Positions 8,471 through 29,735 of a stretch of 32,000 nt of DNA are shown piece after piece; positions within the stretch are counted from its first letter, which is position 1; each line of letters opens with the position of its first letter. Location: contig JAUYHT010000006.1 in assembly GCA_030688545.1 (NCBI GenBank), positions 330,001 through 362,000 of the forward strand, read 5' to 3'. The DNA comes from Candidatus Iainarchaeum sp. GTDB lineage: Archaea > Iainarchaeota > Iainarchaeia > Iainarchaeales > VGJJ01. The position numbers were made by a program, and so were the translations under genes. The notes beneath the pieces were generated by a model. The model had not been told where the DNA came from, searched no databases, and saw nothing but the letters and a program-made list of their open reading frames with translations.

Positions 8471-8833
8471 TCACGCACCCTTCTTCTTCCGTCCTTTCCG
8501 TTTAGGAGCTATATCCTCGGAGGTCGAGGTATCCGGGATGGTTAAAACATTGGATTTCCCTTCCTCCAGGACGAGAAGAGTCGACACCACAAAAGGTTTG
8601 CCGCACACCGATCCCAATTCCAGGCCATTTCCAAGATAGGCATACGTTGGAATTCCCAATAGGGTGGCGAGGGTCGCTACCCCCTCCTTAGTCACTCCAG
8701 GGGTGTTTTGTGCCATAACCACGAGCTTCCCTTCCCCATGGCGGAGCGCATCCTGCGTCTGCTTCACCCCGAATAACACTTTCCCCGTGTCCACAGCGCG
8801 TCTGATTTCCTTGCTGGCTTCGGCCGCATCCAT
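8471..8833 (-). CDS. rpl30e: 50S ribosomal protein L30e (eL30) with a short Lys/Arg-rich C-terminal tail
   Basis: RRAVDTGKVLFGVKQT...GKLVVMAQNTP...YLGNGLELGSVCGKPF matches the eL30/L7Ae fold family and the expected position after rpoA''. An alternative start is at 8842. AGGAGGG sits too close to that ATG and about 10 nt from the ATG at 8833, so I prefer 8833. Confidence 0.88.
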   Translation of the reverse strand: MDAAEASKEIRRAVDTGKVLFGVKQTQDALRHGEGKLVVMAQNTPGVTKEGVATLATLLGIPTYAYLGNGLELGSVCGKPFVVSTLLVLEEGKSNVLTIPDTSTSEDIAPKRKGRKKKGA

Positions 8834-8975
8834 ACTCCACATCCCTCCTAAGGGTGCTTCTCATGGATAACATTCAATGAGAATGAGCCAATCCTCCATG
8901 AAAAGGCATTTAAATGGTCGGCTTCTTCCCCAGCCCAACTGATAAAAAAAGTAGAAAAGTAAGAAAAACAAGGAA

Positions 8976-18375: not shown

Positions 18376-18783
18376 ATGGCAACCACTCTGAAGACAAAAA
18401 CGATGAACAAAGAAAATTGGGCGCGTCGGCAAAAAATAAGAGTGAAATTAATGAATGAATGGATTCGTTCCAAGAAAAAAACCTTTACCGAATTGTTAGA
18501 ACACCATTTTTTGGATCGCCGTTCGGCGGCCGCGAATTACGCATTGCGACGAATGGGCATCTTCGGGGCTAATCGACGCCAAATCATGGGTTGGATTAAA
18601 CAGATGGCCCATGCCACAATCATGATGAATAAGGTCTCCCACAATAGCAGCGAATATAATATATGGAAGGATAATCGCCGCCTGTATGAAAGAAGAATCA
18701 ATGAGTTGTTTGGAAGCGAAAGCGATAATGAAACTTTTAAGGAATATTTCAAATATTTCCTCGAACACACAAATATTAAATGA
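18376..18783 (+). CDS. Hypothetical basic protein (135 aa) in an AT-rich segment
   Basis: It is the only long ORF with a protein-like composition across this segment. I recognise no family motif. An alternative leaderless start at 18403 lies 27 nt after AATTATAC. Confidence 0.5.
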   Translation: MATTLKTKTMNKENWARRQKIRVKLMNEWIRSKKKTFTELLEHHFLDRRSAAANYALRRMGIFGANRRQIMGWIKQMAHATIMMNKVSHNSSEYNIWKDNRRLYERRINELFGSESDNETFKEYFKYFLEHTNIK

Positions 18784-19003
18784 ATCGCTTCTTTTTGGAG
18801 GAACCCCGTTTCGCTTTCCCCCGTTTTCCCTCTCTGGAAATATCTTTTTCCGCGTGCAGCTCTTTCATGGGATTGGCGAATAGCCCATAGAAAATAATGG
18901 CGAGCAAGAGGATGATGCTCGCCCACTCCCTTCCCGTTTCAGTGAAATAAATCACGAGCCCCACCACGGCCACCGCCACCACCGCCCAAAACCATCCACT
19001 CAT
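18776..19003 (-). CDS. Small membrane protein (75 aa) with two TM helices and a Lys/Arg-rich tail
   Basis: Contains WFWAVVAVAVVGLVIYF and IILLLAIIFYGLF, then KRGKAKRGSSKKKRFI. A TATA box lies 23 nt upstream of the ATG. Confidence 0.6.
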   Translation of the reverse strand: MSGWFWAVVAVAVVGLVIYFTETGREWASIILLLAIIFYGLFANPMKELHAEKDISREGKRGKAKRGSSKKKRFI

Positions 19004-20873: not shown

Positions 20874-21309
20874 GATAAAAAAGAGATTGAAACACCTGCA
20901 ACAGCAGACCATCCGATCACCCCGGACAGAAATGGATCTATTGGTCAGGTTACGCGATTATCACCAAAAGCTGTTGCACTATCGCTTGCTCCGGAAGGAA
21001 GGGTTAAATGTGGTCGGGCGGGCATTGAATGATCCCATCGCCTTTTTCCGCGTGCAGCGCATGCGCGCCAAACGGATTATCAAGCGTTGGTGGGGAAAAC
21101 GAGTGGTTTCGCTGGAAGAGTACGCCGATGCCCAGCATGAACTCATGGAACTGGAATTCTTGGAACGGATGGAACAGATTGGGGGACATTGGTCGCTCAC
21201 ACGACTCGAGAAAAAGAGGTTATTGGAACTGCAAGGCATAAAGCCGCATTTGGAAAAGGCCATGGCCAAATATCAAAGGAGAAAAGGGGATGAAAACGTT
21301 CATCAATGA
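20755..21309 (+). CDS. Hypothetical highly basic, predicted coiled-coil protein (184 aa)
   Basis: It is the only coherent ORF covering 20874..21302. It has heptad-like, Arg/Lys/Glu/Leu-rich helices (EEILEIKKRLKHLQQQ, HELMELEFLERMEQ). I recognise no family. It overlaps the crtYd tail by 119 nt and the crtI 3' end by 7 nt. Confidence 0.55.
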   Translation: MTRIPPKKRPLLSRIRRSSHFQKKALYRERLRTISEEILEIKKRLKHLQQQTIRSPRTEMDLLVRLRDYHQKLLHYRLLRKEGLNVVGRALNDPIAFFRVQRMRAKRIIKRWWGKRVVSLEEYADAQHELMELEFLERMEQIGGHWSLTRLEKKRLLELQGIKPHLEKAMAKYQRRKGDENVHQ

Positions 21310-22832
21310 CCTTCGGTCTCCTGCAGGAGGCGTTCACACGTGCGGGCCGAAATAAGAACCATGGGCATCCCACTTCCTGGATGGGTGCTGGCGCCCACGA
21401 AATAGAGGTTTTCCACCTCCTCGCTTTTTTGGGAGGGCCGGAAAACACTGCTCTGGAGGAATAGCGGGGCTAATCCGAATGTCGAGCCGAAGTGCATGCC
21501 TCCTAATTTTTCCCAATCATCTGGGGTGAAGATTTCAATCATCTCGATGTTCTTACGGAGGTCCGTCAACCCGCTGGCCTCCAATCTTTCCAGTACGCGC
21601 TGGGTGAAAACCTCTTTCTCGCTTTTCCAATCCACTCCTCCATCTTTTTTGAGATGGGGAACAGGAACCAAGACATTCAGTAAGTGTTTCCCCCGTGGGG
21701 CCGTTTTGGGATGGGTGCGTGTTGGAACATTCACGTAGAAACTGGGTTGGGTGGGCAGGATTTTTTCATCGAAAATCTCCCTGAAATTCATTAGAAAATC
21801 CGGGGAGAAGAACACATTGTGGTGCAGGAGTTGCGGATAATCTTTCTTCACTCCCAGGTGGAGCATGAAGGCCGAACAGCCATAGGTTAGGGAGTCTATC
21901 TTCTTGTCGGGGTAGTAGGTTGTCCGGTTTTCACGGGGAATCAACCGTGCATACGTCGCGGGCAGGTCAAGATTGCTGATGAGGGTATCTGTGGTTATGG
22001 TTTTCCCATTCTTCAATACGATACCTCTGGCCCCCTTCTCTTCTACCATTATTCGTTCCACGGGGCACGAATAGTGGATTACCACCCCCAACTCGCGGGC
22101 CAACGTTTCAATCCCCCTCATGATGGTTGGCATCCCCCCAGACGGGTACCATACTCCCTCCATCATCTCGATGAAAGGAATCATGGAATAGGTTCCCGGG
22201 GTGCGCAAGGGGCTCTCCCCCACGTACATACTTTGAAAAGAGAAGGCTAATCGTATCTTTTCATCCGGAAAAAAACTTCCGGCGTGTTCCCACATGGAGG
22301 TGAATCCATCGGCCCCCAGCATCTTTCCCCATTCTCCCGATAAAACCAATGCTTTCACCGTTGAATGATTTCGGTCGATGAAGGCAGGGTAGATGGTGTC
22401 ATATTTTTGTTGCTCATACGCGAGAAAATCCAATACCCCCTGCCACGACCCGGAGGATACGCGCTCAAACTCTTTTTTGGCATGGGGAAGACGGCTGGAC
22501 ATATCCAAAGATGTTCCATCCCAATAGTGAATCCGGAGATAGGGATGGAGATTTTCAAACTGGAAATAGTTTTCCATGCGTCGCCCGCAGTACGAGAAGA
22601 GTTCCTCGAATTCTCCCGGCATCAGTACAAACGTGGGCCCCCGGTCGATGGTATATCCCTTTTTGGTGAAAGAAGATAGTCTCCCTCCCGGAAATGGATT
22701 TTTCTCGAACACGTGAACGTTTTTACCGCGTGAGGCGAGGCGGCAGGCGAGCGCCAACCCTCCCAACCCCGCCCCGATGATGGCAAATGAAACGTGAGAA
22801 GGAATTATTTTTTTCACGGGGCGCGGGGGCAT
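21303..22832 (-). CDS. crtI: Phytoene desaturase (CrtI family FAD-dependent oxidoreductase)
   Basis: 509 aa. The N-terminal dinucleotide fold FAIIGAGLGGLALACRLASRGKNVHVFEKNPFPGGR and the C-terminal YFVGASTHPGSGMPMV signature are present. It lies directly downstream of crtB. Confidence 0.9.
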   Translation of the reverse strand: MPPRPVKKIIPSHVSFAIIGAGLGGLALACRLASRGKNVHVFEKNPFPGGRLSSFTKKGYTIDRGPTFVLMPGEFEELFSYCGRRMENYFQFENLHPYLRIHYWDGTSLDMSSRLPHAKKEFERVSSGSWQGVLDFLAYEQQKYDTIYPAFIDRNHSTVKALVLSGEWGKMLGADGFTSMWEHAGSFFPDEKIRLAFSFQSMYVGESPLRTPGTYSMIPFIEMMEGVWYPSGGMPTIMRGIETLARELGVVIHYSCPVERIMVEEKGARGIVLKNGKTITTDTLISNLDLPATYARLIPRENRTTYYPDKKIDSLTYGCSAFMLHLGVKKDYPQLLHHNVFFSPDFLMNFREIFDEKILPTQPSFYVNVPTRTHPKTAPRGKHLLNVLVPVPHLKKDGGVDWKSEKEVFTQRVLERLEASGLTDLRKNIEMIEIFTPDDWEKLGGMHFGSTFGLAPLFLQSSVFRPSQKSEEVENLYFVGASTHPGSGMPMVLISARTCERLLQETEGH

Positions 22833-22859
22833 ACGCGATAGGAATGAATTATCCTTCTT

Positions 22860-23720
22860 TTAAGGGTGTCCGGGGAGGATGGTTTTTTGCTCCTGACATA
22901 TTTGGCGCATGCGCGAATCCGACACCCGAACACGGGAGGAAAACACATCGTATCCTCGCTGTTCAATTTCATCCAAAATCCCTTCGTATAGCGCGCCGCA
23001 AAGGAAAGTTCCCATGCGTGCGTGACGAGGAATGGAATACTTGGCCTCGCGCGCGGGCACATAAAATGAGCGGGCCCGGGCCACCTGGAAACGCATGAGT
23101 TCCTGGAATGCTGGAGTGATTTTCCCGGCGGCCAACTCCTCCTCCGTGTATCCGAACGATTTAATATCTTCGTGGGGTAAATACACGCGCCCTATTTCAA
23201 AATCCTCTTGGATGTCCCGGAGGATATTAGTGAGCTGCATCCCAATGCCTAAAGCGACCGCGGCGGACATACTCGCTAGCGGCGCGCCCACCAATCGAGC
23301 CATCATCCGTCCGGGGATGCCTCCCGCGGCGGCGCAATAGTGGTGTAATGATTCAAATGTCGCATAGCGATGACACGTCAAATCCCTCCGCAATCCCTCG
23401 ATGAGGGCGAATCCGTCGGTCTGGGGAATCCAATATTCCCGGCAGGTATTCACGAATGCGGATAGGATGGGGTGAGACGCGGAATTATTTTCCCATCCGT
23501 GGTGCAAATCCTTTTCCCATTCCTGCAATTTATTTTTTTTGCTCGATGGATCCATTTTTCCATCGACAATATCATCGGTGGCCCGGCAGAAAAGGTGTAC
23601 AGCGGTAGCGGCTCGTCGGATGTCTAAAGGGAAACTCTCGGCAGCGATTGCGAAGCTCGATAGGGATTCAGTGAGAGGAACGGATTGGGGGGAAGTAATA
23701 GAATACATCTGCCGCCGCAT
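22860..23720 (-). CDS. crtB: Phytoene synthase (squalene/phytoene synthase family)
   Basis: 286 aa. Two Asp-rich motifs are present (FCRATDDIVDG and NILRDIQEDFEIGRVYLP). Confidence 0.92.
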   Translation of the reverse strand: MRRQMYSITSPQSVPLTESLSSFAIAAESFPLDIRRAATAVHLFCRATDDIVDGKMDPSSKKNKLQEWEKDLHHGWENNSASHPILSAFVNTCREYWIPQTDGFALIEGLRRDLTCHRYATFESLHHYCAAAGGIPGRMMARLVGAPLASMSAAVALGIGMQLTNILRDIQEDFEIGRVYLPHEDIKSFGYTEEELAAGKITPAFQELMRFQVARARSFYVPAREAKYSIPRHARMGTFLCGALYEGILDEIEQRGYDVFSSRVRVSDSRMRQICQEQKTILPGHP

Positions 23721-23742
23721 GGTCAGAAAACAGATTCAACCC

Positions 23743-23748
23743 TTATAA
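23743..23748 (-). promoter_or_regulatory. TATA core within the palindrome CCCTTATAAGGG, 22 nt upstream of the crtB ATG
   Basis: Read directly at 23740..23751. Confidence 0.45.
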
Positions 23749-23819
23749 GGGAATGACGTTATCCCCACTTGAATGAAGGATTATCCAACAAAAAGGTTGG
23801 CGTCTATTCGCATGCGCGC

Positions 23820-24998
23820 TCACCACCCATAATGCGCCGCTCGGGAATATCCGAAGGCGAGGAATGCGTCCACGATCCCTTTTTGGTAGAGGTCGTAGTT
23901 GCGGGTGAGGACGTGATATCCCACTTTGGCTTTGTCCAGGGTGGAGAGGTCTGAGAGCTCAGCGGGCATGAGTCGCCCGATGCGATTCAGTTCGGCGTCA
24001 GTGAAATTGTACAAGGCTTTTTTCCCTTGGATAATTCTATCATAAGAGGGAAATTCTGCTTTCCATTTCTTCTCATAGAGGGATAAACCTGCTTTAGTCA
24101 CATCCCCTTTGGTTAAGGCGTCCTTTGCCACCTCCGCGGCCATCTGACCCGAGACCATTCCCAGTTGGGTGCCTCCTTCGAATAAAGGAGAGGTAAACCC
24201 AGCCGCGTCCCCGATGAGGAGTATCCCATCAGCATACGTGTTCTTCACCGGCCCCGAAGAGGGGATGGGCCCTCCGAATGTCTTGACCTTGGCTTTTCCC
24301 TCCCATCCCATTTCTTTCACGAATTGGTCCAAATAGATTTTGGCCTTGGGAATATCGTGCGTCACCAACCCCACGTTGGCCCGCCCATCGTTCTTGGGGA
24401 TCATCCACAGGTAGCCCTCTGGCGCTAGCCGGGGCCACAAGTAAAAATCCAGGTAGCCTTCCTGGGGGATGTCCAGGAGTTCATACTGGATGCCCGTCGT
24501 CACCCCGAATCGGGGATTGAGTTGGAGCATCCTGTTTCCCACTCCCGCCGCACCTGAACCATCAATGATCATTTTTGACCTGATTTTTCCCTGGGAAGTA
24601 TCCACGTCCCATTCCCCAGTTGTTCGTGTCAATCCCGTCACGCGGGTGGATAACGACAAATGGCTCCCCGCGTCCTGGGCCCGCGCGGCCAACCATTTCT
24701 CGAAGGCCTGTTTCTCGAGCACGTATCCTTTTTCAGTCAATTTGACTTTGTGGGAGTCTGGGAATATCACTTGCACCCCATTCACGGGGAGGGCGATAAC
24801 TTCTTTGGGAAATTTGACCCCGCACCTTATTTCGGTCATCTCGCTCAGACATTCCCCGCAATGCACCGGCTCCCCGATCGCCGCATGCTCTTCCACGAGG
24901 ATGGTTTTCAATCCCCTCCGGGCCGCATGATAGGCAGCATTACCCCCAGCTGGGCCGGCGCCGATGACCAGGACATCGTATACGGATGATGGGTCCAT
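23820..24998 (-). CDS. Geranylgeranyl reductase family flavoprotein
   Basis: 392 aa. Contains YDVLVIGAGPAGGNAAYHAARRGLKTILVEE and a CGE motif (PVHCGECLS), with the overall archaeal GGR layout. The exact substrate (lipid or other prenyl group) cannot be determined. Confidence 0.88.
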   Translation of the reverse strand: MDPSSVYDVLVIGAGPAGGNAAYHAARRGLKTILVEEHAAIGEPVHCGECLSEMTEIRCGVKFPKEVIALPVNGVQVIFPDSHKVKLTEKGYVLEKQAFEKWLAARAQDAGSHLSLSTRVTGLTRTTGEWDVDTSQGKIRSKMIIDGSGAAGVGNRMLQLNPRFGVTTGIQYELLDIPQEGYLDFYLWPRLAPEGYLWMIPKNDGRANVGLVTHDIPKAKIYLDQFVKEMGWEGKAKVKTFGGPIPSSGPVKNTYADGILLIGDAAGFTSPLFEGGTQLGMVSGQMAAEVAKDALTKGDVTKAGLSLYEKKWKAEFPSYDRIIQGKKALYNFTDAELNRIGRLMPAELSDLSTLDKAKVGYHVLTRNYDLYQKGIVDAFLAFGYSRAAHYGW

Positions 24999-25021
24999 GG
25001 AATAGAAAGGAGCGGGAATGA

Positions 25022-25028
25022 TTTAAAA
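25022..25028 (-). promoter_or_regulatory. TATA box (minus strand TTTTAAA) 23 nt upstream of the GGR ATG
   Basis: Read directly. Confidence 0.42.
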
Positions 25029-25092
25029 GCGTGCCAAGTCCCCGATAGGGGGGAACGCTTTTCTTTTCCCATAGGAAGAAGACATTCCTTTT

Positions 25093-25704
25093 TTATCCCT
25101 GGGCAGGTGACCGCATCTCGAACATCCGGGCATTAGCCGCCTTCTCTTCCATGAATCCCCAGTTCAGATTTTTCATGAATATCTCGATGTATTCTTTTCG
25201 GTTGGTCCCATAGTCCAGGAAATAGGCATGCTCGTACACATCCAATATCAGGACCGCGGAACAATCCCAGATACCTCCTTGGTTGTGGGCGTCGCAGATG
25301 TAGTTATGCAGTTTCATGTCCTGCCAATCGAATGCCAGCACCACCCATCCCCGGGCGGCCATCCCCAGGGCTTTGAATTCGGCCTCCCATTTTTCATACG
25401 ACCCAAAATCCTCTTCGATCATTTTCAACAGGTTTCCACTAGGCCTTCCTCCCTTCCCCCCGAGGGCGGCGAAATAGCCTTCGTGTAATCGCACCCCATT
25501 GACGGCGAATCCTTCTTCTATCTTGACGGCGCGCAATTGGGAATAGGTCTGGTTGGCCTTGGTGAGATCAACCGTTTTGAGGGCCTCCCTCAACTCATCC
25601 GTCTTCTTCACATAGCCCACATATAGTACGTCGTGGTGTTCCGAGATCTGCTTCTCGGTGAGCCCCTGCAAGCTCTTGTAAGTCAATGGTTTGGGTTCAG
25701 TCAT
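25093..25704 (-). CDS. sod: Fe/Mn-family superoxide dismutase
   Basis: 203 aa. The N-terminal EHHDVLYVGYV and the C-terminal DVYEHAYFLDY (D-x-W/Y-E-H-A-Y motif) supply the metal ligands. GGGAGGA lies 11 nt upstream of the ATG. Confidence 0.92.
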   Translation of the reverse strand: MTEPKPLTYKSLQGLTEKQISEHHDVLYVGYVKKTDELREALKTVDLTKANQTYSQLRAVKIEEGFAVNGVRLHEGYFAALGGKGGRPSGNLLKMIEEDFGSYEKWEAEFKALGMAARGWVVLAFDWQDMKLHNYICDAHNQGGIWDCSAVLILDVYEHAYFLDYGTNRKEYIEIFMKNLNWGFMEEKAANARMFEMRSPAQG

Positions 25705-26466: not shown

Positions 26467-26895
26467 CTATAACAGCGCGCGCTGCTCGTCCGCGAGCCTT
26501 TCCTTGAGCAGGGCGATGGGTTGTCTCCCATTGAACCCAGAGTCTTCATCGTGGAAATAGAGCACTTCGGATTCGTCGTATTGCCAGCAGAGCAATAGGT
26601 CCTTTCCCCCCATTTTGGTGTAGAAATCAACCAGCCCTTGAGAGACGTCCTTCACATAGCAACCCATCCGTGTGAGGGTTTCGAGTTCGGCAAAATATTT
26701 GAATGACAATTCATGATAACGCTTGTTGATGTTGATGGCCAGTATTTGGGCCTTCAGATCAGGGGAGTACGCGTGCACTTTAACCCCCGTGAGGGCGAGG
26801 AGCTCGTCATGAATAGTCATGAGTTTCTCCATGTGGCGTTTCACTTTGGGAAGGATGCGTTCGACTTCCTCAACGGTGAAATAATAACGGGACAT
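26467..26895 (-). CDS. DUF2203-like protein
   Basis: 142 aa from the ATG at 26895 (the track start at 26901 is a TTG). The N-terminus MSRYYFTVEEVERILPKV and LLLCWQYDESEVLYFHDEDSGFNGRQPI resemble DUF2203 as I recall it. Confidence 0.7.
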   Translation of the reverse strand: MSRYYFTVEEVERILPKVKRHMEKLMTIHDELLALTGVKVHAYSPDLKAQILAININKRYHELSFKYFAELETLTRMGCYVKDVSQGLVDFYTKMGGKDLLLCWQYDESEVLYFHDEDSGFNGRQPIALLKERLADEQRALL

Positions 26896-26917
26896 GAACA
26901 AGTAGCGAAGCCACCGT

Positions 26918-26924
26918 TTTTATA
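26918..26924 (-). promoter_or_regulatory. TATA box (minus strand TATAAAA) 22 nt upstream of the DUF2203 ATG
   Basis: Read directly. Confidence 0.42.
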
Positions 26925-27097
26925 GATTCTCTATTAAGGCTTCCCTCGGCGCGCGGGCGGCCATCTGTTTATTATAAAAGAAACGGTCCCCCGCCAATTC
27001 GATGTCGATGCGTCTTGCAATGAGTTTATCCCGGTGGAAGTTTATCGGGATGCCATCCATTTCGTAAAAAGGCTAGTTATTGCAGCAAGAAACCATC

Positions 27098-27994
27098 TCA
27101 TCCCTGCTTTTCATTCGGAATGGTGTCCATAAACCATTTAATCTTCTGCCCCGGGTGTAGGGTGCGCGGGCACTCATCGGCCTTTTCCAACGAGTAGGGC
27201 ACCGGCAGGTGTTTTTTGATGATGGCCACGCGCGTGGCATCCCCATCCCGCGCATCCACGGCATACTGATGCGCCTTGACGAATGCGGCCGGACTCAAAC
27301 CCCCTGTTTTCCAAACTTCGGCGGAGGCGTGGCATATCCCGCATAGGGTACATTGATGGGCGTCCCCCAATTGTCTTATTTCATCTGGAGACATTCTGTA
27401 GCGGCGAATATCCATTTGTTTTCGAGGGACGAGGTGGGAATTTACTTGAGTTAGTTGGTGGAAGAACTCTTTCTCGTCGCACACTAAATCCTTGATTACC
27501 CTCTCCGGGGTCAGGGGGTCGATGCGGATGCTCCCGTTTTGATCGATATGATCCCCTACTTTGATGACGCATCCTAAGACGGGGCGGCCATTCACTCGCA
27601 TCCCGCAGGAACCACAACTGGCGTGTCCACAGTTTGAGCGAAAGGTCAAACTTCCATCCTGGGTGTGTTTGAGTCGCAGAAGGAGTTCCGCGACACTCTC
27701 CCCCTCTTTTGGGGAGATGGCATACTCATGCGTGCGGGGACCGAAATCCATGTGAGGATTATATCGGCTGACCCGCACGAACCAGGTGGAAGGGAATACG
27801 TGTTTGGGGATTCTTTTTGGGGGAGATCGATTGGTTTTCCGGGGGTTAATTAGAGGTTTCCTTTTTTTCAATGGGATATTTTTTTTCTTTTGAATATATT
27901 TTTTCTGTTTTCGAGGGAAAATAGTTTTCCTCGGAGAGGGTTTGCCTTTTGGAATAAGCGTTGATTTCCGTTTCTTTGTTTTAAGTCGGGCCAT
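27098..27994 (-). CDS. Succinate dehydrogenase / fumarate reductase Fe-S subunit-like protein with a polybasic N-terminal extension and no [3Fe-4S] ligands
   Basis: The [2Fe-2S] motif C-x4-C-x2-C-x11-C (CGHASCGSCGMRVNGRPVLGC) and CTLCGIC...ECP are present. The ATG at 27994 lies 1 nt after the flavoprotein stop. The track start at 28021 overlaps the upstream gene by 26 nt. Confidence 0.85.
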   Translation of the reverse strand: MARLKTKKRKSTLIPKGKPSPRKTIFPRKQKKYIQKKKNIPLKKRKPLINPRKTNRSPPKRIPKHVFPSTWFVRVSRYNPHMDFGPRTHEYAISPKEGESVAELLLRLKHTQDGSLTFRSNCGHASCGSCGMRVNGRPVLGCVIKVGDHIDQNGSIRIDPLTPERVIKDLVCDEKEFFHQLTQVNSHLVPRKQMDIRRYRMSPDEIRQLGDAHQCTLCGICHASAEVWKTGGLSPAAFVKAHQYAVDARDGDATRVAIIKKHLPVPYSLEKADECPRTLHPGQKIKWFMDTIPNEKQG

Positions 27995-27995
27995 A

Positions 27996-29735
27996 TTAGT
28001 AATGCCTTCCTTCCGGCGCATAGCCTTTGATCACCACGCTCTTATAGGTTAGCGCCACGCCCTTCCCTTTTTTGGTCGCGAGGGTGTGTTTCAACCATTT
28101 GGCATTGTCCCTCCGGGGATAATCGATACGAGTATGCGTGCCTCGGCTCTCGGTGCGGGCGAGGGCGCTGGCCAATATGGCTTCGGAGATGGAAACCAAA
28201 TGATGAGTCTCGAGAGCCGCGAGGAGATCGGTGTTGTACACAGGGGATTTGTCGTCCACGTGTAATTGTTCAATCTGCGTGCGAATCTTCTCCCAGCCCC
28301 GCATCCCCCGGGAGAGAGACGCGTTACTCCGGTAGATCCCGCAGGTTTGGGTCATTAATTGGGACAATTTTTCCTGAACGTCATAGGATTTGAATCCATG
28401 GGACGTGGTCAAAAACCGGTTAATCCTTTCCCGCGCGCGTTCCAGGTGGATGGAATCATGGGGCTTGAGTGAAGATTTGCGGGTGCGCACCTGGTGACTC
28501 ATTCGCAAACCTGCGATGCGGCCGAATACCAGGCTTTCCAGCACCGTGTTTCCTCCCAATCCATTGGCCCCATGCACGCCCGCGCAGGCCGTTTCCCCGG
28601 CCGCATACAGATGGGGGAGAATTGTGTTACGGGCATCCGTCACGACGCGGGTTTGCAGGTCGATGGGAATACCCCCCATAGTGAGGTGCGCCGCGGGGGA
28701 AACGGGAATATGTTCTTGCGTGCCATCGATATTCAAATGGGTTTTGACCATGTGGATGGTTTCAGGAAGATGCGCTGAAATGGCTTTTTCTCCCATTGGC
28801 CGTGCGTCCAATAATACATGATCATTTTGGGGACCCACTCCCCTTTTGCTCATTATTTCCTTGGCAATCGCCCGGGCGATAATATCCCGGGGCGCCCGTT
28901 CCAGGGCAGTGGGGGCATACCGCTTCATGAAGCGTTCGCCTTTCGCATTGAGCAGGTGCGCCCCTTCTCCGCAGGCCGCCTCCGGGATAACATATCCTTT
29001 TCCATGCATCCCGGTGGGGTGGAATTGGACAAACTCCATGTCTTCCAATGGCAATCCCGCGTTGAAGGCCAATGCGAGCCCATCCCCTGTGCTGGCATTC
29101 GTATTTGTGGTGGGAGAAAAAATCCTTCCCGATCCTCCGGTGGCCAGCATCACCGCGCGGGCATGGGCCTCGATGAGTTTCCCTTTTTGAATGTCCAGGA
29201 GAATGGCTCCTTGGCAACCATTTTCTTCTACAACCAAACCCACACAAAAATAATCCGTGTACATCGTAGGATGGGTCTTCATGAGTTGATCATGCAAGAG
29301 GTGCAGGAGCAGGTGCCCCGTGCGATCCTCCGCGTAATGAGTGCGAGGTTTTTGATGCCCCCCAAGGACGCGTCGGGCCATCTCTCCTTTTTGGGTGCGT
29401 GAAAACGCGAGCCCCCAAGAAGATTCCAGTTCCTTCACTCGGGCGGGGGCCTCTTGGCACATTATTTCGATGGCGTCCTGGTCCCCGAGAAAATCGCCCC
29501 CATAAACGGTGTCATTGAAATGCTTTTTCCAATCATCCTGTGGCCCCATCGCCGCATTGATACCATCACTTGCGTCCGCTACATGAGCGCGCACCGGGTG
29601 GACCTTGGAAACGATTCCCACGTCCATGTTCTGCTGGCGTGCCTCGATCGCCGCCCGTTGTCCGGCGATCCCTGCGCCAATGATGAGGATGTCGTGGGAG
29701 ATGGAGGGCATATCCTCCCGACTAAAACAGCCCAT
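27996..29735 (-). CDS. SdhA/FrdA-family flavoprotein (succinate dehydrogenase / fumarate reductase flavoprotein-like, atypical active site)
   Basis: 579 aa. Contains ILIIGAGIAGQRAA, RAH (covalent-FAD His position), AEDRTGH, DMEFVQFHPTG, APRDIIARAI, AHLTMGGI and ESRGTHTRIDYPRRDNAKWLKHTL. Deviations from consensus are described in the findings. An alternative start is at 29711. Confidence 0.9.
   Translation of the reverse strand: MGCFSREDMPSISHDILIIGAGIAGQRAAIEARQQNMDVGIVSKVHPVRAHVADASDGINAAMGPQDDWKKHFNDTVYGGDFLGDQDAIEIMCQEAPARVKELESSWGLAFSRTQKGEMARRVLGGHQKPRTHYAEDRTGHLLLHLLHDQLMKTHPTMYTDYFCVGLVVEENGCQGAILLDIQKGKLIEAHARAVMLATGGSGRIFSPTTNTNASTGDGLALAFNAGLPLEDMEFVQFHPTGMHGKGYVIPEAACGEGAHLLNAKGERFMKRYAPTALERAPRDIIARAIAKEIMSKRGVGPQNDHVLLDARPMGEKAISAHLPETIHMVKTHLNIDGTQEHIPVSPAAHLTMGGIPIDLQTRVVTDARNTILPHLYAAGETACAGVHGANGLGGNTVLESLVFGRIAGLRMSHQVRTRKSSLKPHDSIHLERARERINRFLTTSHGFKSYDVQEKLSQLMTQTCGIYRSNASLSRGMRGWEKIRTQIEQLHVDDKSPVYNTDLLAALETHHLVSISEAILASALARTESRGTHTRIDYPRRDNAKWLKHTLATKKGKGVALTYKSVVIKGYAPEGRHY

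Follow-up and report, generated by a model that had tools for sequence, protein, structure and literature searches.

The window analysed here, a stretch of 32,000 nucleotides (nt) from the archaeon Candidatus Iainarchaeum sp. (contig JAUYHT010000006.1, positions 330,001 to 362,000), encodes on its reverse strand (-) two proteins related to the flavoprotein and the iron-sulfur subunit of complex II. An sdhA-like gene for a flavoprotein of 579 amino acids (aa; 27996..29735 (-)) is followed by an sdhB-like gene for a protein of 298 aa (27098..27994 (-)), which forms the main subject of this analysis, since it combines a reduced set of cluster ligands with an unusual N-terminus. The flavoprotein scores 638.8 bits with TIGR01812 (cut-off 567.3). 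The second protein had been proposed to be SdhB-like in a preliminary description made from the letters of the window, and this identity is confirmed by TIGR00384 (dhsB, the SdhB/FrdB subfamily; 140.5 bits versus a cut-off of 88), by an N-terminal Fer2_3 domain (1.3e-25), the only Pfam match of the 298-aa protein, and by the PDB, in which its best relatives of solved structure are complex II SdhB chains (E ~1e-25). None of the NCBIfam equivalog-level models is passed by this protein, all the scores being under the cut-offs. An identity with TfrB was considered and ruled out, since the 298 aa hold no C-terminal (HdrD-like) CCG domains with extra clusters: the CCG domain PF02754 was not found by the Pfam search, and NF004898, which has a cut-off of 385, gives 81.9 bits.

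The two genes are tightly joined. The ATG at 27994 sits 1 nt beyond the TAA stop of the sdhA-like open reading frame (ORF), which ends at 27996; an alternative in-frame ATG at 28021, with which the GenBank entry MDP2666801.1 begins, overlaps sdhA by 26 nt and adds MRRKEGITN, yielding an SdhB of 307 aa. Both ORFs of the window are intact, which rules out a pseudogene by disrupted frame. An AlphaFold2 (AF2) model of the SdhB, built on a 21-sequence alignment, has a mean predicted local distance difference test (pLDDT) value of 66.6, with a poorly modelled C-terminal domain.

The cluster ligands were read from an alignment to solved SdhB/FrdB structures and 170 homologues. The [2Fe-2S] motif, C122-x4-C127-x2-C130-x11-C142 (27569..27631 (-)), is intact, and its four columns are invariant, with CCCC in all clade members. 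In motif I, CTLCGICHASAE (residues 215-226; 27317..27352 (-)), three Cys of the [4Fe-4S] cluster are present, the [3Fe-4S] Cys is replaced by Ala and the Pro by Glu; in motif II, VPYSLEKADECP (residues 265-276; 27167..27202 (-)), both [3Fe-4S] Cys are gone and C275-P276 stays. The [4Fe-4S] ligands C215, C218, C221 and C275 (then P276) are found in their canonical place and are invariant in the clade, and the positions of the third cluster are taken by Ala225, Pro266 and residues of the Ala272 region (clade consensus A / H / A), none of which is Cys. The core of the protein contains nine Cys, eight of them assigned to clusters; with only one to spare, no alternative ligand set is available, so that a third cluster, be it a [3Fe-4S] or the second [4Fe-4S] of the type E enzymes, is lacking. 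The quinone-site residues that lie near the [3Fe-4S] site in solved SdhBs are absent as well. The preliminary description had reported exactly these motifs, and its tally, 3+1 Cys for one [4Fe-4S] cluster with all three [3Fe-4S] ligands missing, agrees with the alignment.

This reduced set of ligands characterizes a whole, narrow group of archaeal proteins. When 5.8 billion clustered proteins were searched, 20 close relatives were returned (44-60% identity), all of which keep the eight [2Fe-2S]/[4Fe-4S] Cys and lack all three [3Fe-4S] Cys; the clade consensus reads CxLCGxCNAxxx ... HYSLEKANxCP, with motif I conforming to CxxCxxC-N/D-A-x-x-x. As judged from the source names, the clade falls within Ca. 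Diapherotrites / Iainarchaeum (DPANN). A profile search of 1.84 billion representatives found only two proteins above 370 bits, the next one (P0023, at 234 bits) coming from another Diapherotrites archaeon and being likewise 3Fe-less, and a scan of JGI metagenomes added a single further clade member. Because the 3Fe-less pattern is common to the whole of this narrow clade, the cluster loss is reconstructed as ancestral to it. Literature searches turned up no account of the SdhB of this clade, of the biochemistry of 3Fe-less SdhBs or of polybasic tails in DPANN archaea.

The gene neighbourhood is conserved over 16 distinct loci, which share the order GT2-GT4-sdhA-sdhB-(fumC)-DUF2203-methyltransferase-Fe/Mn superoxide dismutase (SOD)-geranylgeranyl reductase-phytoene synthase-phytoene desaturase. 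Neither the window nor any of the 16 distinct related loci has a gene for an SdhC/D or CCG-type (SdhE/F) anchor beside sdhAB. The gene that comes and goes is fumC, a 1.5-kb gene for class-II fumarase, which follows sdhB in 12 loci and usually overlaps the sdhB stop. In 11 of these relatives fumC stands between sdhB and DUF2203; in the twelfth, the more distant Diapherotrites locus L172 (8001-13398), the order is sdhA-sdhB(3Fe-less)-malic enzyme-fumC, with DUF2203 on the opposite strand. The loci without fumC are the window (= L001), L003, L004 and the fragment L013. The site that fumC occupies in relatives corresponds in the window to a spacer of 196 nt between sdhB and DUF2203 (26902..27097), and no fumC remnant is detectable in it, tblastn with six FumC proteins having yielded noise only at E values up to 50. 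A 46-aa ORF that NCBI calls within the spacer (about 26920-27060) has no Pfam match. In a tree of five neighbouring control genes, L004 is the sister of the fumC-containing L005, and the window and L003 are found elsewhere; because of this separation, fumC must have been lost at least twice and probably three times.

The loss of fumC goes along with the state of the SdhA partner. When the catalytic set of the E. coli SdhA, namely H45 (covalent flavin adenine dinucleotide, FAD), H242, T254, E255, R258, R286, H354 and R399, was mapped on all loci, each of the 12 fumC-containing loci was found to possess H45, H242, S254, E255, R258, R286, H354 and R399. In the window SdhA, three of the eight catalytic residues are replaced: T254P (P251), R258C (C255) and R399G (G392). 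This protein keeps H51 (the equivalent of the FAD-linking His45), H239, R283 and H350, together with the FAD-binding GxGxxG, and shows the replacements Q50S/G51D (S56/D57) near the flavin; the full dicarboxylate catalytic set of a complex II flavoprotein is incomplete in it. L004 has five replacements out of eight (H45P, T254G, R258L, R286H and H354Q), and L003 has two (H45P and R286F) in an sdhA that is frameshifted, being split into two overlapping ORFs of 126 and 473 aa (L003 6315-8026), which reflects either real pseudogenisation or an assembly error. The replaced residues differ among the three complete fumC-less lineages, with no sign of convergence.

The erosion extends far beyond the catalytic residues and affects both subunits. 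At sites that are invariant among the fumC-containing loci, the window SdhA has changed at 79 of 324 (24%) and the L004 SdhA at 23%, as compared to 4% or less when each fumC-containing sequence is left out in turn; the corresponding values for SdhB are 19 of 91 (21%) in the window, 21% in L004 and 6% or less in the leave-one-out comparison. In the five neighbouring control genes, the invariant-site change amounts to 5-9% in the window and 0-6% in L004. The TIGR01812 score drops from 753-760 bits for the intact orthologues to 639-650 bits in the eroded copies. Still, the ORFs remain intact in the window (579 + 298 codons) and in L004 (572 + 268 codons). In neutral simulations with indels ignored, a reading frame of the size of sdhA stayed free of stops in ~3% of runs at an excess amino-acid divergence of 0.10-0.15, and in no run at 0.20. 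Moreover, the four fumC-less SdhBs retain 32 of 32 cluster Cys against an expected loss of ~15-21%, which has p ~0.003 as calculated arithmetically from the invariant-site change rates.

The N-terminal extension is the other peculiarity of the window SdhB. Residues 1-72 (27779..27994 (-)) form a polybasic, disordered stretch with 19 Lys, 8 Arg, 11 Pro and no Asp or Glu, the very counts given in the preliminary description. Over 20,000 mononucleotide shuffles of this segment, the probabilities of finding at least 19 Lys and at least 27 Lys plus Arg were both <5e-5, that of finding no Asp or Glu 0.027 and that of finding no stop 0.02; Lys is ~3x as abundant as expected from the nucleotide composition, and the five other frames of the region contain stops or acidic residues. 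The AF2 model shows no secondary structure for residues 1-70 (pLDDT 45-55). The whole window has no Rfam match at gathering thresholds, which rules out a known RNA element in the A-rich extension region, and a tRNA search of the window found none.

The case for translation of the extension, which had been made from the open A-rich frame and the ATG 1 nt after the upstream stop, is strengthened by the relatives. All 10 orthologous loci examined have an open frame ahead of the domain and an ATG placed at or just before the sdhA stop, either 1 nt past this stop or 26 nt upstream in overlap with sdhA. A GGAAGG or GAGG motif precedes the ATG at 27994 by ~10-12 nt, as it does the corresponding ATG in five of nine other loci; in the remaining four (L002, L003, L010 and L012), the overlapping upstream ATG is the only one placed to start the extension, L002 having in addition an internal ATG right before the domain. 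The alternative start, the GTG of FVRV, is replaced by an Ile codon in several orthologues and hence is not conserved, and no Shine-Dalgarno-like motif was found before it. Given the open frames, the placed ATGs and the replacement of the GTG, the extension is very probably translated. A K/R-rich, acid-poor N-extension of 25-72 aa is carried by 18 of the 20 orthologues; these extensions are not alignable with each other, their composition being what is conserved. Most orthologues also possess a basic C-terminal tail, which the window SdhB lacks.

Similar tails had been noted on two other proteins of the window. These are real: the C-terminus of eL30 (8471-8842 (-)) reads PKRKGRKKKGA, and that of a single-pass membrane protein of 75 aa (18776-19003 (-)) reads KRGKAKRGSSKKKRFI. 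Few other proteins share the feature: among 187 ORFs of the window and 13 related loci, basic tails were seen on a DsbA-like protein, on an unassigned 194-aa ORF of L005 and, weakly, on FumC. The DsbA-family protein, encoded upstream of the syntenic block, has 12-14 Lys or Arg in its last 25 residues in three relatives (L002 28-693, L005 170-961, L007 271-1035). A genome-wide habit of basic tails is ruled out, since most enzymes of the window and its relatives are devoid of them; the tail looks like a lineage-level habit on selected proteins rather than a specific substitute for an anchor.

As to the remaining neighbours, DUF2203, encoded in the window at 26467..26901 (-) (Pfam PF09969, 2.6e-27), is a protein of 142-144 aa whose gene is next to or near sdhAB in 15 of the 15 loci that extend past sdhB/fumC; literature searches on DUF2203 function found none described, one unrelated paper mentioning the domain. 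A conserved electron partner was considered and rejected: near sdhAB, only the outgroup locus L172 encodes a cupredoxin anchored in the membrane and a Rieske ferredoxin of 100 aa, possible partners that the main clade does not conserve, and the ORFs of 196-198 aa that L005 and L170 have at the corresponding position gave no Pfam match. The window also contains a carotenoid/isoprenoid block by the Fe/Mn SOD (together 21303-25704 (-)); the block consists of the genes for phytoene desaturase (21303-22832 (-)), phytoene synthase (22860-23720 (-)) and geranylgeranyl reductase (23820-24998 (-)), that for the SOD lying at 25093-25704 (-), with lycopene-cyclase halves further on in L001. The combination of the carotenoid block with the SOD suggests an oxic, light-exposed lifestyle.

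What could be the history of this pair of genes? The ancestral arrangement of the clade is reconstructed as sdhA-sdhB-fumC, with a complete catalytic site in SdhA and an SdhB that was already without the [3Fe-4S] cluster and carried a disordered Lys/Arg-rich N-terminal tail, usually with a C-terminal one too. The position of fumC after sdhB, together with the malic enzyme-fumC order in L172, points to an ancestral role in a short pyruvate/malate-fumarate-succinate branch. An enzyme that has neither the [3Fe-4S] cluster nor the quinone-site residues next to it cannot act as a quinone oxidoreductase; the ancestor can be envisaged as a cytoplasmic, quinone-independent fumarate reductase that would have ended the malate-to-fumarate-to-succinate branch. 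Since its outermost cluster is now the [4Fe-4S], electrons would be expected to enter there, supplied by a low-potential donor in solution, for instance ferredoxin. In complex II enzymes that have been characterised, the potential of the [4Fe-4S] cluster is very low, about -260 to -320 mV, and with such a cluster in the outermost position the reduction of fumarate becomes more plausible than the oxidation of succinate. Through non-specific electrostatic contacts, the polybasic tails could dock the enzyme to an acidic partner or carrier, or to an anionic surface. In the lineage of the window, fumC has been deleted, and SdhA has lost the Thr of the active-site loop, the Arg of the proton relay and the Arg that binds the substrate carboxylate. 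Because of the deletion of fumC and the loss of these three residues, the window pair has probably ceased to interconvert succinate and fumarate, and it is predicted to be an eroding or repurposed remnant rather than a working succinate dehydrogenase. Since neither reading frame is broken and none of the eight cluster Cys has been lost, SdhAB is most likely still made in this organism as a protein with FAD and Fe-S clusters, subject to selection that is residual or altered, and is not a dead pseudogene. The scenario as a whole, a clade-specific, anchorless two-cluster SdhAB that was ancestrally a fumarate reductase and in this genome has become an eroded remnant still being made, seems to us fairly probable on the strength of these comparisons.

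Several observations weigh against this scenario. The covalent-FAD His, present in the window and in the intact orthologues, fits succinate oxidation as well. No conserved ferredoxin or other carrier was found in the neighbourhoods of the clade, cupredoxin and Rieske proteins being confined to the outgroup L172. Outright pseudogenisation, as represented by the frameshifted sdhA of L003, does occur in the clade. The sdhAB sequences of the window and L001 are the same, so that the three substitutions may come from one population, and the erosion rates derive from simple distances and invariant-site counts, not from codon models. Plain decay should be considered as an alternative, with sdhA and sdhB being pseudogenes in the making that have not acquired a stop yet and the tail having no present role. 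The catalytic residues lost in three fumC-less lineages, in each its own set and without convergence, the 4- to 10-fold excess of invariant-site changes in both subunits, the broken sdhA of L003 and the disappearance from the window SdhB of the basic C-terminal tail of most orthologues are what such decay would produce; the intact ORFs of the window and L004, each sdhA having a neutral probability of 0.03 or less of being stop-free even before indels, and the full retention of cluster Cys in the four eroded SdhBs are not, and we consider this possibility unlikely, albeit one to be taken seriously. The opposite alternative is neofunctionalisation, whereby the FAD/Fe-S pair would act on another substrate or serve as a redox relay or sensor, with the remodelled active-site loop conferring a new specificity. 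The SdhA superfamily has diversified into L-aspartate oxidase and urocanate or other enoate reductases, so that a spread to other substrates has precedents, and the unbroken ORFs, the Fe-S ligands kept despite fast evolution, and the preserved GxGxxG and His45 equivalent of the window SdhA would all be compatible with a new function. A shared new substrate is difficult to reconcile, however, with the different residues changed in the three fumC-less lineages, the FAD-linking His has been lost in L003 and L004, and the fumC-less loci contain no new conserved neighbour gene; this alternative, too, appears unlikely, and somewhat more so than plain decay. A broader version of it, in which the clade represents an uncharacterised class of quinone-independent two-cluster SdhAB, with conserved disordered polybasic tails that would bring in an acidic electron carrier or keep the enzyme at an anionic surface, and in which the FAD/Fe-S scaffold was retained and repurposed for a non-dicarboxylate redox role after the fumarase loss, strikes us as rather improbable; if true, it would offer a natural case of a complex II head-piece outliving its own catalytic site.

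Two further alternatives concern the extension. In the preliminary description, it was thought to replace SdhC/D in a working anchorless succinate dehydrogenase or fumarate reductase (Sdh/Frd), by tethering the complex to an anionic membrane or nucleic acid. This idea accommodates the lack of an anchor gene throughout the related loci, the absence of the quinone-proximal cluster and quinone-site residues, and the acid-free tails of conserved composition. Yet, with the equivalents of T254, R258 and R399 missing from the window SdhA and fumC gone, there may be no activity left to tether, and membrane attachment without a quinone-proximal cluster offers no obvious electron outlet. In known structures, furthermore, the N-terminus of SdhB is located in the [2Fe-2S] domain next to SdhA, away from the membrane-facing side. 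Polybasic N-extensions are also present on SdhBs with full Cys sets, both in Woesearchaeota and in the locus L173, where the gene stands beside those for a CCG subunit and a DoxX-like protein, and their occurrence next to an anchor-type CCG neighbour implies that the tail is not specifically an anchor substitute. The tether idea is thus unsupported and somewhat weakened, and we regard it as distinctly improbable. Alternatively, the extension could be functionless, either an A-rich spacer held open by the coupling of sdhA to sdhB or an untranslated segment with the true start at the GTG of FVRV. Such an explanation would account for the start codon abutting or overlapping the sdhA stop in every locus examined, for the variable length (25-72 aa) and the conservation of composition without that of sequence, for the sdhB-fumC junction, which is likewise A-rich with basic termini on both proteins, and for P0010 (236 aa), which was called without an extension. 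It does not easily explain the threefold excess of Lys, the absence of Asp and Glu in the coding frame only, the stops in the other frames, the Ile at the GTG position of several orthologues with no Shine-Dalgarno-like motif before the GTG, or the GGAAGG/GAGG motif in front of the ATG at 27994 and its counterparts in five of nine loci. A functionless extension accordingly looks unlikely, and in the scenario of an eroded but still produced SdhAB the extension is counted as selected as well as translated, a point in favour of that scenario.

If this scenario is correct, complex II relatives can lose their [3Fe-4S] cluster along with the membrane anchor, and apparently have done so more than once (in Iainarchaeota, in Syntrophobacter-type bacteria and in others). 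It follows from this joint loss that scoring "sdhAB present" as evidence of complex II or of a tricarboxylic acid cycle would be wrong for this clade, and the misreading would be doubled for genomes such as the present one, the catalytic residues of SdhA being gone. A cheap annotation rule would be to inspect eight SdhA residues and three SdhB cysteines. The link between the absence of fumC and the loss of SdhA catalytic residues within the clade is what is new here; being so tight for both SdhA and SdhB, it provides a clean natural experiment on the co-dependence of pathway genes. Finally, polybasic tails on a redox enzyme, seen also on other DPANN SdhBs, bear on the role of disordered regions in very small cells.

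It remains to compare the window pair with known systems. It shares with the canonical SdhB/FrdB proteins (E. coli 1NEK_B and 1KF6_B; mitochondrial SDHB) the same two-domain family, the canonical positions of the [2Fe-2S] and [4Fe-4S] clusters, and the placement of the gene directly 3' of that for an SdhA/FrdA-type flavoprotein. Unlike them, the window SdhB has no [3Fe-4S] ligands, no quinone-site residues and no anchor gene nearby, bears a 72-aa polybasic disordered N-extension and is paired with an SdhA minus three catalytic residues. The closest parallel is provided by the SdhAB-1 of Syntrophobacter fumaroxidans (Sfum_0172-0174; SdhB A0LEM3, P0097 cluster), which is likewise anchorless and whose SdhB, according to our alignment, is without [3Fe-4S] ligands too (CILCGVCEADSE ... 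ELPDKCP). This case is already on record: the genome paper described an anchorless sdhAB-1 with reduced cluster motifs as "not a conventional Sdh or Frd" (PMC3570798), and its product was not detected in proteomes (PMC5947623). The S. fumaroxidans SdhB-1 differs from the window protein in being bacterial, 220 aa long and devoid of a polybasic extension, and its SdhA is reported to be catalytically complete. A single ancient family of 3Fe-less SdhBs was considered and rejected, since the grouping in a full-length neighbour-joining tree vanishes without the degenerate C-terminal region (0 of 50 bootstraps for the N-domain plus linker). Because the grouping needs this degenerate motif region, the archaeal and bacterial losses of the cluster appear to be convergent.

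The type E succinate:quinone reductase and the thiol:fumarate reductase (Sulfolobus SdhABEF; Methanothermobacter TfrAB) are also archaeal, non-classical and without transmembrane SdhC/D, and in them, as in the clade of the window, the electron exit differs from the classical [3Fe-4S]-to-quinone step. These enzymes possess, however, a second [4Fe-4S] cluster in place of the [3Fe-4S] and CCG-domain subunits or domains, whereas the window SdhB has neither a third cluster nor a CCG domain. As to the extension, the SdhBs of the P0057 cluster (Ca. Woesearchaeota) and P0036 (L173) carry Lys/Arg-rich, acid-poor N-extensions of 37-70 aa before the [2Fe-2S] domain. The P0036 protein, with its 70-aa polybasic N-extension, is encoded in an unrelated archaeal-type locus (L173 4847-9015) that comprises sucCD and the genes for a DoxX-like membrane protein, SdhA, the SdhB and a CCG-domain protein, the SdhB gene standing between those for the DoxX-like protein and SdhA and that for the CCG-domain (SdhE-type) protein. 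In P0057, P0036 and P0125, in contrast to the clade of the window, the polybasic N-extension occurs together with the full Cys sets for the third cluster.

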